Assembly: GCA_964427735.1 (NCBI GenBank)
Contig: CAYRUS010000002.1
Span: 67,734-131,733 of the forward strand
Direction of reading: 5' to 3'
DNA length: 64,000 bases
Source of the DNA: an uncultured Gammaproteobacteria bacterium
GTDB lineage: Bacteria > Patescibacteriota > Microgenomatia > UBA8517
Shown here piece by piece: positions 7,638 through 54,134 of the stretch; position 1 is the first letter of the stretch, and every line of letters begins with the position of its first letter. The notes below the pieces were generated by a model that saw only the letters and a program-made list of their open reading frames with translations, searched no databases and was not told the origin of the DNA. The position numbers and the translations under genes were made by a program.

Positions 7638-7709
7638 GCTGACGTAGCTCAGGGGTAGAGCGCTTTCTTGGTAAGAAAGAGGTCGGTGGTTCGAATCCAC
7701 TCGTCAGCT
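7638..7709 (+). tRNA. tRNA-Thr (anticodon GGU)
   Basis: Hand-folded cloverleaf. Acceptor GCTGACG/CGTCAGC, D-arm GCTC..GAGC, anticodon stem CTTTC/GAAAG with loop TTGGTAA, T-arm GGTGG-TTCGAAT-CCACT. No CCA encoded. Confidence 0.85.
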
Positions 7710-7755
7710 CTCAATTATTGATGTAATTCTCTACTTCTGGTAAAATACCAAAGTT

Positions 7756-7926
7756 ATGGCAAAAGCAGGAAAAGATATTGTCGGGCTCGAATGTGAGATC
7801 TGCAAAACAAGAAATTATGTAACCACAAGAAACAAAATTAACCTTGAGGGCAAGCTATCTATTGCTAAGTTTTGTAAGATTTGTCGCAAGAAGACTCTAC
7901 ATAAAGAAAACACTCGCCTAAAATAA
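7756..7926 (+). CDS. rpmG: 50S ribosomal protein L33 (56 aa). Missed by the ORF track because it is under 60 aa.
   Basis: Translation MAKAGKDIVGLECEICKTRNYVTTRNKINLEGKLSIAKFCKICRKKTLHKENTRLK. Zinc ribbon CxxC...CxxC and a KKTLHKE motif as in Bacillus RpmG. Canonical position after tRNA-Thr. Confidence 0.85.
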   Translation: MAKAGKDIVGLECEICKTRNYVTTRNKINLEGKLSIAKFCKICRKKTLHKENTRLK

Positions 7927-7992
7927 TTTAGTACTCTTCTCATCCCCTTGCCTTCAATTCTAGGCTGTACTATCATTAGATAGAGTGCTGCC

Positions 7993-8478
7993 ATGGACGA
8001 AAATAACTTCAACCCATACCGAACAATAGTAGTGGACGAACATGAAGAAAATACTTCAGTAGAAGAAACTGTTAAAGTTACCACGCAAGTTTCAGAAATA
8101 AGAGTTCCAGAAAACATACCTATACGAGTGAGACATCCTTTTCCCAGAAAGCATGTATACCATGTATATGAAGAAACCCAAGTAGAGCATAAAACCACCC
8201 ATAGATCGGGGCAAGATTATGTTACAAATACAAGGACTCTTAAAATAGGTCAGATCAAAAAAAGCAAAAATTCAAAATCACATAGTAATGGATCATTGGT
8301 TGATTTAGACAAGCTTGATGAGCTTTTAAAATACCAGTCTCAACAAAAAGCAAGAAAAAGATATACAAAAATAGAACGATCATTATTTTTTATTCTTGTC
8401 TTTTTTGTTATTTTTGATCTTATTCTGTTTCTTTCTTATGTTGTATTAACCAGTAACTCTTTGGCTTTTGGACAATAA
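7993..8478 (+). CDS. Hypothetical protein with a C-terminal TM helix.
   Basis: ORF track. Hydrophobic FFILVFFVIFDLILFLSYVVL. Confidence 0.35.
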   Translation: MDENNFNPYRTIVVDEHEENTSVEETVKVTTQVSEIRVPENIPIRVRHPFPRKHVYHVYEETQVEHKTTHRSGQDYVTNTRTLKIGQIKKSKNSKSHSNGSLVDLDKLDELLKYQSQQKARKRYTKIERSLFFILVFFVIFDLILFLSYVVLTSNSLAFGQ

Positions 8479-8538
8479 CGTATTATTTCTATGCTTAAGG
8501 AAAATTTTTTATCTGGTATAATTTAACTAGATTATTAA

Positions 8539-9066
8539 ATGGTTAACGAAAGAAGAGTAAATTTTGATCCAGACCACCCAAAAGCAAATATACATGGAGT
8601 TGTAGGCATAGAAGGTGAAGCAGTATGCTACACAGACGCTTCTGCTAAAACTTTATGCACCGGTTGCTGCACTGCTTTGCATATAATTCCCGAGGAAGTC
8701 GATCCAGATAAATTAAATGATCTGGATCATGATTATATTGCTCTAAAACCAAGAGGTGAAAATTGCCACGCTCAAATACCAAGTCAAGGATGCAATTACA
8801 TTATAGAAGGCACACCAGAAGGACGCTATTGGATCTGCCCTCTTTATCATTGTAGTGGAGACATAATAAAAGCCAAACAAATAAAAGATGAAAATATGCA
8901 AAAAAACCCTTTGGCAAATTTAGATAAATACCACGAAATCATTGCTGCCGGCCACAGAATACAACAAGAACTAGATGCCGCTCTTAAACACAACGAAATA
9001 ACCCAAGAGGAATACGATGAAAGTATTAAGAGATTTAATGAATCAGTAAACCCTAACTCTAAGTGA
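8539..9066 (+). CDS. Hypothetical Cys-rich protein with about 10 Cys in CxxCC / CxxxxxxxC / CPLYHC arrangements.
   Basis: ORF track. No recognisable family. Confidence 0.4.
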   Translation: MVNERRVNFDPDHPKANIHGVVGIEGEAVCYTDASAKTLCTGCCTALHIIPEEVDPDKLNDLDHDYIALKPRGENCHAQIPSQGCNYIIEGTPEGRYWICPLYHCSGDIIKAKQIKDENMQKNPLANLDKYHEIIAAGHRIQQELDAALKHNEITQEEYDESIKRFNESVNPNSK

Positions 9067-9067
9067 T

Positions 9068-9379
9068 TTAGTAACTATTGTTTCTTTTAAGTATTTCAGT
9101 AAATTTTGAATAGTTTGTGACATCACTAATTTCCCCATATCTATTATGTTCAAGGCAAAAAGAATGTCCACTAATATCTGTAAGAGTCTGGCGTGTGTAT
9201 ACTGAATTTGCGTCTACAAATAAATGGGAATTACCTTTAAGTCCTTGGCAGTTATATATTGGAATGTAATAGTTATCATCTCTTATACCATGCATTTCGA
9301 AGAGTATAATTAATTGTGTCTTAATATGTCTAAGTTTATTTATTCTACTAATTCTTTCCCTCTCAACACTTTTATTCAT
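9068..9379 (-). CDS. Hypothetical protein
   Basis: ORF track only. Confidence 0.3.
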   Translation of the reverse strand: MNKSVERERISRINKLRHIKTQLIILFEMHGIRDDNYYIPIYNCQGLKGNSHLFVDANSVYTRQTLTDISGHSFCLEHNRYGEISDVTNYSKFTEILKRNNSY

Positions 9380-9477
9380 AAATTTTTAGCCTTATAACTA
9401 AATCCTATCTTCGCAAAATCCCAATTTACTAAAAATCATATCACACAAATATTTACATACAAAATCCTAATCTTAAT

Positions 9478-52198: not shown

Positions 52199-52215
52199 AC
52201 TATAAGTCCTAAAGA

Positions 52216-52923
52216 TTACTTATTTAATAACGGAAGACTGACATTTAAATCATGAGGTAGTTTGCCTTTATACACATTCTCATCTTCTGAAACTTTAATT
52301 ACCAAACTTGTATGATCCATACTAAATAATTTCATACTTGAGATATAAGATACCTCTTCTCTCCAATCAGTTCTTTCTCTCAAACAAAGAAAAACCTCTA
52401 GCAGTTTTGGCTTCAAAATACCATTTTCTTTAGTTCTATGCATGCCTGTGGCATTAGTAAAAACTAAAAACACAGGAAATTTATTCTCTCGCACAGGAGT
52501 TAAGAGGCTATCTATTCCTGCTTGAACCGCAGAAGCAGCTCTCCTTATTTTGTTATTTGGTATTAATGTTTTTTGGCCACTTTCACTATCAAAACTAATG
52601 TCATAGTTTCCTTTATTATCAGCCAAATAATGGTGATCTAGAATATTTGGATTAACTGTGTTGAGATATACATCAAAAAATTTCGTTATACGCTCACCTG
52701 TTAAGCCTCCTGAATATGTATCTCTAATTCCGATTTTTTCAGATACATGGAAGGCTCTTTGCTGAATTTTATCAATAATTGCAGTTCTCGATTCAGCTAA
52801 TCTTAGAACTTCAGTTTCTCTTGCCATCTCCGATAGTATATCAATTATTTCCCAAAAATAAATATGGGGTTGATTGCAATTCTTAAGATAATTTGTTAAG
52901 ATACTTTTGTCCGAAGAAAACAC
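52216..52923 (-). CDS. Hypothetical protein
   Basis: ORF track. Confidence 0.35.
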   Translation of the reverse strand: MFSSDKSILTNYLKNCNQPHIYFWEIIDILSEMARETEVLRLAESRTAIIDKIQQRAFHVSEKIGIRDTYSGGLTGERITKFFDVYLNTVNPNILDHHYLADNKGNYDISFDSESGQKTLIPNNKIRRAASAVQAGIDSLLTPVRENKFPVFLVFTNATGMHRTKENGILKPKLLEVFLCLRERTDWREEVSYISSMKLFSMDHTSLVIKVSEDENVYKGKLPHDLNVSLPLLNK

Positions 52924-52982
52924 GCGTAAAAGTAAGCCGTGTCGAGGAGTAAAAAATACTAACTAGGTATTTTAATGTATTA

Positions 52983-53004
52983 ACTCTCTTCGGAGAGTTT
53001 TTTT
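52983..53004 (+). terminator. Intrinsic terminator/attenuator hairpin (ACTCTC-TTCG-GAGAGT plus T7) in the rplJ leader, 33 nt upstream of the rplJ start
   Basis: Seen in sequence. GC-poor but perfect 6-bp stem with a UUCG tetraloop and a U7 tract. L10-leader attenuators are established in other bacteria. Confidence 0.45.
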
Positions 53005-53036
53005 GATTGACATCAATTATTTACAAATAACAATTT

Positions 53037-53558
53037 ATGCTAACCAAACAAGACAAAAAAGAACTAGTATCAAATTTAACTGACACATTTAAACAGTCAA
53101 GTGCTGTTATTTTAGTTGACTATTCCGGACTTAGTGTCTCTATGCAGCAAGAGCTAAAATCAAGATTAGCTGAGGCTGACGCTAAAATGGTTGTTGTTAA
53201 AAACACCTTGATTAAGTTAGCAGGAAAAAAGGCAGAAATTAATGACGATGCAGTCAGTGATGAAGTGCTAGCTGGTCAAACAGCTGTCATTTATACAGAC
53301 AGCGATCCTATTTCCCCACTCCAAATTCTTGCTAAATTTGCAAAAGAATTCGAAGTACCACAAATGAAAGTAGGAATTGTAGAAGGAAAATTTCAAAGCA
53401 AAGAAAATTTAACAGCTTTATCCAAACTTCCAGGAAAAGACGTTCTTTCAGCACAAGCTGTTGGAGCAATTGGAGCTCCACTTTATGGTCTTGTTAGTAC
53501 ATTACAAGGAAATTTACAAAAACTTGTGTTTATTTTAAGTGAGGCTAGTAAAAAGTAA
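53037..53558 (+). CDS. rplJ: 50S ribosomal protein L10
   Basis: MLTKQDKKELVSNLTDTFKQSSAVILVDYSGLSVSMQQELKSRLAEADAKMVVVKNTL. Confidence 0.85.
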   Translation: MLTKQDKKELVSNLTDTFKQSSAVILVDYSGLSVSMQQELKSRLAEADAKMVVVKNTLIKLAGKKAEINDDAVSDEVLAGQTAVIYTDSDPISPLQILAKFAKEFEVPQMKVGIVEGKFQSKENLTALSKLPGKDVLSAQAVGAIGAPLYGLVSTLQGNLQKLVFILSEASKK

Positions 53559-53640
53559 TTTAGAAATTAAACATCAAAGATCAAACTGGAATTTGATTTC
53601 TGATTTTTGAGTTTTATATTACCTAGCCTACCGAAAGGAG

Positions 53641-54084
53641 GTGTTCAAAATGGCAGCAGACGAAACAAAAAAAGAAGAAAAGAAAGACGTAAGTAAAAAC
53701 GTTGCAAAAATTGTTGAGGACGTAAAAGGTCTAAGCGTTCTTGAACTTTCTGAGTTAGTTAATACACTTCAGGAAGAATTAGGAGTAACAGCAGCACCTA
53801 TGGCAGCAGCACCTGTAGCAGCAGGAGCAGCAGCAGGTGGTGATGAAGCCGCAGCTGGTGATGAAGCATCTGGAGGCGGAACAGTAGTCTTGACAGACGC
53901 AGGAAGTCAAAAGATCCAAGTCATTAAAGCTCTTAGAGAAATCAATCAAAATTGGGGTCTTAAAGAAGCAAAAGAAATGACTGAAAGCACACCTGTTGAA
54001 GTTCTTAAGGATGCAAAACCTGAAGAAGCAAAAGAAGCCGCTGAGAAGCTTAAAGCAGCAGGTGCGACAGTTGAACTTAAGTAA
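53641..54084 (+). CDS. rplL: 50S ribosomal protein L7/L12
   Basis: RBS GAAAGGAGGTG. Ala-rich hinge. C-terminal KIQVIKALREINQNWGLKEAKEMTESTPVEVLKDAKPEEAKEAAEKLKAAGATVELK. Confidence 0.9.
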   Translation: MFKMAADETKKEEKKDVSKNVAKIVEDVKGLSVLELSELVNTLQEELGVTAAPMAAAPVAAGAAAGGDEAAAGDEASGGGTVVLTDAGSQKIQVIKALREINQNWGLKEAKEMTESTPVEVLKDAKPEEAKEAAEKLKAAGATVELK

Positions 54085-54108
54085 AAGTTTGACTAATTAA
54101 TAAAGAAA

Positions 54109-54134
54109 AGCTCTCTTTTTGAGAGCTTTTTTTA
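54109..54134. terminator. Intrinsic terminator after rplL (stem AGCTCTC/GAGAGCT, loop TTTTT, followed by T7). Also serves the convergent minus-strand gene.
   Basis: Seen in sequence. Confidence 0.6.

Follow-up and report, generated by a model that had tools for sequence, protein, structure and literature searches.

Intervening genes separate the transcription units of the conserved tRNA-Thr to rplL array in a Microgenomates-like bacterium

Nine members of a conserved bacterial gene cluster, running from tRNA-Thr through rpmG, tRNA-Trp, secE and nusG to rplK, rplA, rplJ and rplL, are present in a 64,000 nt stretch of contig CAYRUS010000002.1 (hereafter the window, with features numbered from its position 1), where kilobases of other genes lie between them. 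The first anchor of the array is tRNA-Thr(GGT) at 7638–7710, followed by rpmG, which encodes L33 (7756–7926; TIGR01023, 62.1 bits, above the cut-off), tRNA-Trp(CCA) (11999–12074, with a TATAAT-like box upstream), secE (39821–40006, with a GTG start), nusG (40037–40666), rplK (48834–49268), rplA (49281–50063), rplJ (53037–53558) and rplL (53641–54084). All nine are collinear, lie on the plus strand and are in canonical order. The two tRNA genes, the only ones in the window, were called by ARAGORN and Rfam and the protein genes by NCBIfam equivalog models; approximately 70 open reading frames (ORFs) were scanned with Pfam. The genes secE, nusG, rplK, rplJ and rplL score above their equivalog cut-offs. 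The 260-aa product of rplA reaches 124.8 bits against a cut-off of 216 for the L1 model; it has an N-terminal extension of ~67 aa and a shortened core, to which the low scores of Microgenomates L1 are ascribed, and by sequence it is clearly L1 and orthologous to rplA of the related genomes.

The last six genes form three closely spaced units on the plus strand, namely secE–nusG (39821–40666, 30-bp spacer), rplK–rplA (48834–50063, 12-bp spacer) and rplJ–rplL (53037–54084, 82-bp spacer). The gaps in the array measure 4,072 bp from rpmG to tRNA-Trp, 27,746 bp from tRNA-Trp to secE, 8,167 bp from nusG to rplK and 2,973 bp from rplA to rplJ. A preliminary sequence-only reading of the window had given the same genes, coordinates, strand, order and gap sizes, all of which were confirmed here by ARAGORN, Rfam and NCBIfam. 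It was also right that rpoB and rpoC do not follow rplL: neither gene is found in the 9.9 kb downstream, which encodes MATCAP-like, ATP-grasp, 7TM, UppS and polyprenyl synthetase proteins (Pfam). The MATCAP-like, ATP-grasp and 7TM-transglutaminase-associated genes (54605–58276, minus strand; Pfam) are the neighbours of rplL in place of rpoBC. The further claim that a conserved operon has been disrupted is not upheld, as every break falls between units that are autonomous in classical systems too.

The host is, on protein similarity, a member of the Patescibacteria (Microgenomates/Woesebacteria-like). In a scan of a genome collection with L11, the top matches were Patescibacteria metagenome-assembled genomes (MAGs) labelled Woesebacteria or Microgenomates, at identities of 73 % or less. 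Window proteins were mapped onto 80 genome loci and 6 metagenome loci, and ORFs were clustered across 28 Microgenomates loci. In every one of these 28 loci, and in two metagenome loci compared alongside them, the three pairs are intact, with 0 ORFs between their members and spacers of −4 to 93 bp (secE|nusG), −47 to 145 bp (rplK|rplA) and −4 to 150 bp (rplJ|rplL). The nusG|rplK junction ranges from 3 to 8523 bp with 0–11 ORFs, and the rplA|rplJ junction from 102 to 8495 bp with 0–8 ORFs. Comparison with relatives, which the sequence-only reading had proposed as a way to learn whether the insertions lie at the same junctions, therefore shows the same two junctions to be variable across the lineage and the pairs never to be broken. 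In three distant MAGs of the Candidate Phyla Radiation (CPR; L056, L063 and L079) rplA lies 2–4 kb downstream of rplK, going by tblastn coordinates only, and the rplK–rplA pair may be separable outside the Microgenomates.

One Microgenomates relative, L018, has kept the contiguous canonical cluster, with 3 bp at nusG|rplK and 108 bp at rplA|rplJ, and the outgroups L049 and L069 are contiguous too. Since these loci are still contiguous, it is supported that the cluster was once contiguous and that DNA has since been gained between its modules. Occupancy of the two junctions, scored as more than 500 bp, was placed on a rough neighbour-joining tree of NusG, L11 and L1. The nusG|rplK junction is occupied in 17 of 25 genomes, with at least 7 changes of occupancy on the tree, and the rplA|rplJ junction in 15 of 21, with at least 4. 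Genome-specific ORFs make up 73–82 % of the total at the two junctions compared with 43–57 % elsewhere in the same loci (Fisher p 7e-7 to 2e-4), an excess that is stable to ORF cut-offs of 60, 100 and 150 aa and to dropping the window. Several junction genes are shared inside subclades (c14, c28 and c52 in L017, L021, L038, L039 and L065; c42 in L004 and L007; c50 in L013 and L014), and part of the junction content is therefore inherited.

Other parts of the arrangement are common to the lineage. The order usually met is tRNA-Thr(GGT), rpmG, 0–1 kb of other DNA, tRNA-Trp, a further 0.6–5 kb and rpsU. The tRNA-Thr gene directly precedes rpmG in L002 and L005, is ~1.3 kb upstream in L013, and in L012 adjoins rpmG on the opposite strand. 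In the window rpsU (37534–37740, plus strand; Pfam) and rnhB (37758–38429, minus strand; Pfam) precede secE. One or both of these genes are found just upstream of secE in about 11–13 loci (L002–L006, L008, L009, L011–L013, L018 and L026), rnhB being divergently oriented to secE. The ATP-grasp/7TM block takes the place of rpoBC downstream of rplL in 12 related loci; in Woesebacteria-type genomes this minus-strand block consists of a MATCAP-like peptidase, an ATP-grasp of the sugar-transfer-associated type with a Zn-protease-like tail, and 7TM_transglut. Judged by this distribution, the lineage has long had rpsU–rnhB before secE and ATP-grasp/7TM after rplL in common, and rpsU and rnhB are conserved neighbours of secE, not inserted DNA. 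The four ‘insertion islands’ of the sequence-only reading thus stand as DNA gained between modules, but the 27.7-kb stretch is not one unit and its right end is conserved.

Measured against its relatives, the window genome is unusually expanded at every junction. The interval from rpmG to tRNA-Trp is 4.07 kb compared with 0–1 kb, that from tRNA-Trp to rpsU is 25.4 kb compared with 0.6–5 kb, and the rnhB|secE gap is 1391 bp compared with 2–1159 bp. The whole span from rpmG to the 7TM gene is 50.5 kb in the window and ~12–18 kb in L005, L008, L012 and L013.

Each of the three pairs is preceded by promoter-like sequence. A generic sigma-70 promoter scan of the window did no better than chance, with 73 matches where 66.9 ± 8.2 were expected, so the credibility of these signals comes from their conservation in relatives. 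The putative secE promoter (39785–39813, plus strand) consists of TTGTAA, 17 nt and TG-n-TACAAT, and its −10 box ends 7 nt upstream of the GTG start at 39821. An extended −10 box (TGnTAnAAT) directly before the secE start recurs in ~10 relatives, which suggests that the secE mRNA, with its transcription start inferred from the box, is leaderless or near-leaderless. Likewise, rpmG (ATG at 7756) has an extended −10 box 7–10 nt upstream of its start (7738–7758), suggestive of a leaderless mRNA or a very short leader.

The predicted rplK promoter (48690–48718, plus strand) reads TTTACT, 17 nt, TATAAT, and its TATAAT box is common to the window and ~16 relatives. The leader that follows, up to 48833, would form two helices around a conserved GAGGnAG...CGAA motif at ~48726–48775, with compensatory changes at 5 of 11 pairs in an alignment of 13 loci. 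No match to this leader was found among curated RNA models; its GGGAG-type internal loop is presumably similar to the site that L1 binds on rRNA and mRNA.

Upstream of rplJ, a candidate promoter (52873–52902, plus strand; TTGCAA, 18 nt, TAAGAT) leads into an RNA of the L10-leader type (52893–53013, plus strand), a full-length match to RF00557 at 37.3 bits (E 6e-5) in a 201-nt search with a gathering threshold of 44, below which the relatives score too. Within it a terminator hairpin (52982–52999) followed by a T7 run precedes the rplJ start. Alignment of 16 loci shows a TTGAC-17-TATAAT promoter, the motif CC-n-AAGA...helix...GTAAG...helix'...CGAGGA, and, immediately ahead of the start codon, a G+C-rich hairpin with a T-run. 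Promoter, motif and terminator are each kept in 11–14 of the 16, hairpin plus T-run in 10 of 15 aligned relatives, and 5 of 6 pairs of the inner helix show compensatory changes (14 sequences). The upstream gene g58 is 203 aa (52216–52827) in the existing annotation, and at this length it leaves a 209-nt intergenic region for the leader element. At the other end of the unit, a palindromic G+C-rich hairpin with a perfect 10-bp stem and A/T runs on both sides (54106–54130) probably acts as a terminator in both directions, for rplJL and for the convergent g61.

The sequence-only reading had secE and rplJ acquiring promoter and attenuator signals of their own. Such signals are indeed present; however, those of secE, rplK and rplJ are, on comparative grounds, ancestral and not a result of the split, because they recur throughout the lineage and those of rplJ match a type described from other bacteria. 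In Escherichia coli and Bacillus subtilis, rplKA is controlled by L1 feedback and rplJL by L10(L12)4 feedback, and the promoters and leaders described here presumably work as in these model bacteria.

The DNA that fills the intervals is varied. Interval 1 (7927–11998, mixed strands) contains five ORFs (g07–g11), with a gene for a sigma-70-family protein at 9478–10428 (minus strand; Pfam). Interval 2 up to rpsU (12075–37533, mixed strands) holds 23 ORFs of ordinary cellular type according to Pfam, among them a DUF1775/FMN_bind/ApbE/NQR-like set, an extracytoplasmic function (ECF) sigma factor, two large dockerin-bearing proteins, a histidine kinase, two sortases, an HhH-GPD glycosylase and two EEP nucleases. 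Between rnhB and secE are two genome-specific ORFs, g37 and g38 (38450–39707, minus strand), for which no Pfam or PHROG match was found. Interval 3 (40667–48689) comprises g41–g51, with the Trans_reg_C domain of g48 as its sole Pfam match, and interval 4 (50064–52872) comprises g54–g58. Nearly all ORFs of intervals 1, 3 and 4 are without a family match, and the description of the intervening genes as mostly uncharacterised holds for the window, where most ORFs have no Pfam match. Their description as mostly minus-strand fits interval 3 (10 of 11 ORFs) and interval 4 (4 of 5) but not the mixed intervals 1 and 2. A preferential antisense orientation of interval genes was considered and rejected: minus and plus ORFs number 64 and 43 at the junctions against 258 and 171 elsewhere (p = 1.0).

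Searches of large protein collections with g11, g42, g50 and g58 returned only the query itself in each case, and no homologue of g11 was found among 5.8e9 proteins. Single-sequence AlphaFold2 models were unusable, with a pLDDT (predicted local distance difference test) of 30 for g50 and 38 for g42. The interval ORFs nevertheless look like real, native genes, since their codon-position G+C pattern (GC1>GC2>GC3) and relative synonymous codon usage (RSCU; correlation of 0.93–0.97) match those of the conserved genes. The tetranucleotide distance of each interval also falls inside the null distribution for equal-length segments. These composition tests have a small backbone reference, as the window consists mostly of intervals.

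No integrase, recombinase or transposase was found in Pfam scans of the ~70 ORFs across 64 kb. PADLOC gave 0 matches to defence proteins, and the search of 30 proteins against PHROGs gave no informative match; the lone hit was g48, whose OmpR-type DNA-binding domain weakly matches phrog_731, a family without an assigned function. Interval 3 had no blastn match in phage and plasmid collections. Att-like repeats are absent from the boundaries of every interval, no second copy of the tRNA-Trp 3' end was found within the window, and no exact direct repeats of at least 13 nt had both copies at gene boundaries.

One inexact direct repeat does lie at the edge of a conserved unit. Two copies of 28–31 nt (40668–40695 and 41400–41427; 2 mismatches in 28 nt, 0.00 expected by chance) enclose a single gene, g41 (40743–41240, minus strand). 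The left copy begins 2 nt past the nusG stop codon, and the right copy covers the final 8 codons and the stop of g42. The repeat looks like an insertion scar with a target duplication. On the simplest reading, g42 would once have ended back-to-back with nusG, and a 732-bp segment bearing g41, without a recombinase gene, would later have been inserted with duplication of its target. So read, the scar is direct evidence that a discrete insertion has occurred, once at least, right beside a conserved unit.

Taken together, these observations are best explained, with a probability of about 0.7, by an ancestral Microgenomates array that recurrent gains and losses of genes, each on a small scale, have lengthened at the boundaries of its transcription units. 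The secE–nusG, rplK–rplA and rplJ–rplL units would each have their own promoter, and the rplK and rplJ units would additionally have autoregulatory leaders, an L1-site-like element and an L10(L12)n-type attenuator, respectively. With promoters and leaders so separated, DNA between units would leave expression and feedback control undisturbed, and hence be tolerated. An insert within a pair would abolish translational coupling and autoregulation, and no locus of the lineage has one. Gene order and strand would persist because the process is one of local insertion and deletion, not rearrangement. We infer that the breaks are located by tolerance, that is relaxed constraint, and not by targeting. 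Part of the split, comprising rpsU–rnhB before secE and the lost rplL–rpoB link, is on its distribution ancient and lineage-wide; most intervening genes of the window genome are lineage-specific, compositionally native and without recognisable relatives.

Several points weigh against this explanation. The excess of genome-specific ORFs at the junctions suggests more than passive tolerance, and some targeting or selection is possible. The 25-kb interval from tRNA-Trp to rpsU, with its ordinary housekeeping-type genes, might be one larger rearrangement instead of serial insertions. There is no close relative of the window genome: each window protein looked up, NusG and L11 included, is a singleton at 90 % identity among ~15 billion proteins, the relatives that a metagenome scan found for rplA were all distant, with identities of at most 55 %, and no relative of g47 was found in Joint Genome Institute (JGI) metagenomes. 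With relatives this distant, the particular inserts of the window may be of any age, and the non-orthology of junction genes could partly reflect divergence past detection and not turnover. Additionally, the parsimony counts rest on a rough tree of three proteins, the function of promoters and leaders is deduced from conservation, and the RF00557 match is sub-threshold.

The sequence-only reading had proposed an integration hotspot, in which site-specific or tRNA-targeted elements repeatedly bring foreign genes into the cluster. What survives of that proposal is that two junctions vary repeatedly (at least 7 and at least 4 changes) and hold different, mostly genome-specific genes in different relatives, and that the g41 repeat looks like a scar. 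The start of interval 2 directly after tRNA-Trp would suit it also, as would the four ORFs of intervals 1, 3 and 4 without a homologue, which unsampled mobile gene pools could supply. However, signs of integrative elements are lacking: neither the search for an integrase or flanking att-like repeats nor the compositional profile (G+C, tetranucleotides and codon usage) that had been suggested as checks gave support, there is no duplicated tRNA-Trp 3' end and no phage, plasmid or defence-system similarity, and interval 2 encodes ordinary cellular functions. Such a hotspot is unlikely. The opposite extreme, a fixed ancient gene order in which one ancestral split was filled by old resident genes that have diverged past recognition, with no continuing insertion, gains from the lineage-wide rpsU–rnhB and ATP-grasp/7TM neighbours, the junction genes shared within subclades, the native composition of the intervals and the distance of the relatives, at which missed homology is plausible. 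An old gene order of this kind had been named at the outset as the outcome that would speak against insertions, and it describes rpsU–rnhB and the lost rplL–rpoB link well, but not the junction ORFs, most of which are genome-specific. That the same junction ranges from 3 bp to 8.5 kb and from 0 to 11 ORFs, that genomes with occupied and with empty junctions are intermixed across the tree, that the rpmG–7TM span is 50.5 kb here and ~12–18 kb in four relatives, and that g41 appears to mark a discrete insertion make a wholly fixed order equally doubtful.

An artefact of assembly or binning, with a chimeric contig whose gaps are misjoined foreign fragments, is very improbable. In its favour, the source is a metagenome-assembled contig and all its proteins are singletons; yet NCBI and Logan contigs, up to 248,869 bp long, both carry the same proteins, composition is uniform, and independent MAGs of many studies have the same architecture. 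A more tentative idea goes beyond tolerance: the boundaries of ribosomal units in Microgenomates could be preferred landing or birth sites for lineage-specific genes, arriving independently of integrases and with ~30-nt target duplications as at g41. Such sites would be favoured perhaps through the insulation that strong promoters, leaders and terminators on their flanks provide. We regard this as a minor possibility; if true, the junctions would be a recurrent nursery of relative-less genes in a phylum known for genomic ‘dark matter’.

Several further features of the window accompany the array. L1 N-terminal extensions of 30–90 aa, starting MGKTKTA or MGKIR and often with a conserved (V/I)xGLKGG(E/Q)RV motif, occur across the Microgenomates (window 49281–49480; also L003, L008–L011, L013, L014, L017, L018, L022, L031 and L081–L083), and may be a lineage-specific ribosomal feature. 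NusG likewise has an N-terminal extension of ~39 aa (40037–40153), in which Woesebacteria-type relatives conserve a ERGTGKKKIPGHIVI-like motif; it is common to L002–L009, L012–L014, L022 and L031 and is different or absent in the L017/L021/L038/L039 clade. Within interval 3, the adjacent genes g44 and g45 (42804–44258), which have no other homologues, are weak tandem paralogues (phmmer E 5e-5; BLASTP 24 % over 76 aa; 0 of 2000 shuffles match the score), suggesting a tandem duplication followed by fast divergence inside the interval. The product of g50 (47456–48265) shows 31 % identity over 110 aa to the RNase HII encoded by rnhB of the window (E 9e-6, 0 of 2000 shuffles reach the score), including a DSKKxS motif. 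Derivation of g50 from rnhB is not claimed, because an RNase HII profile built from 13 relatives gives g50 −1.3 bits, no better than shuffled sequences; the likeness may stem from an old local duplication or from chance.

Upstream of the array, g04 and g05 (3975–7535) are tandem paralogues with 70 % identity. They have dockerin-like C-terminal modules in common with g20 (1323 aa) and g21 (927 aa) of interval 2 (19827–26581), which themselves have a common 63-aa segment at 75 % identity. The dockerin-bearing proteins, together with the two nearby sortases, suggest a surface-protein system. In tetranucleotide composition, only the left flank (1–7637) deviates. GC skew tracks the coding strand only and is uninformative on replication direction.

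The break-up of this cluster has been described in other bacteria. Its usual first step is the invasion of an inter-operon region by a few genes, after which relaxed selection permits further separation, and 67 % of cluster-disconnection events are insertions (Brandis 2021, PMC8046335). In Bradyrhizobium and Actinomyces, genes separate rplKA from rplJL (PMC12993453, NAR 2026). As in the system of Brandis 2021, insertions in the 28 loci are confined to operon boundaries, with operons intact and collinear (0 ORFs within and 0–11 between pairs), order and orientation are kept at first while colocalisation is lost progressively (here the rplL–rpoB link), and horizontal gene transfer is not required. 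Unlike in that system, the locus belongs to a different phylum (CPR/Microgenomates), events are frequent and not rare (at least 7 and at least 4 among ~25 genomes), breaks occur at nusG|rplK as well as at rplA|rplJ, the inserted genes are mostly without detectable homologues and are not relocated housekeeping genes, no transposable elements are seen, and the rpoBC link is completely lost across the lineage.

Compared with E. coli and B. subtilis, the unit boundaries are the same (secE–nusG, rplKA and rplJL), a promoter precedes rplK and another rplJ, and the rplJ leader has a conserved predicted binding helix and a terminator. However, the units lie kilobases apart with unrelated, mostly antisense genes between them, rpoBC is not downstream, secE is seemingly leaderless or nearly so, and the RF00557 score is below its gathering threshold. 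The locus resembles tRNA-associated genomic islands in that a large, accessory-looking block starts right after a tRNA gene and varies in content between relatives, but it differs from them in having no integrase, att repeat, duplicated tRNA 3' end, compositional deviation or mobile-element genes. A full-text literature search, which is weak evidence of absence, found no description of an architecture of this kind in CPR bacteria.

The locus is thus another instance of known operon-cluster erosion, in a different phylum, and it reveals no new mobile element and no new mechanism. For annotators and for synteny-based binning and marker tools it is a warning that the cluster can span ~50 kb in CPR genomes. 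Almost no regulatory elements are known from this uncultured phylum, to which the locus adds conserved promoter and leader motifs: leaders of the L10 and L1 types and a near-leaderless secE. It is also a natural experiment on the cohesion of the gene cluster that bacteria conserve most: within this lineage the autoregulated pairs alone are never divided, and adjacency between the units and to rpoBC is dispensable.

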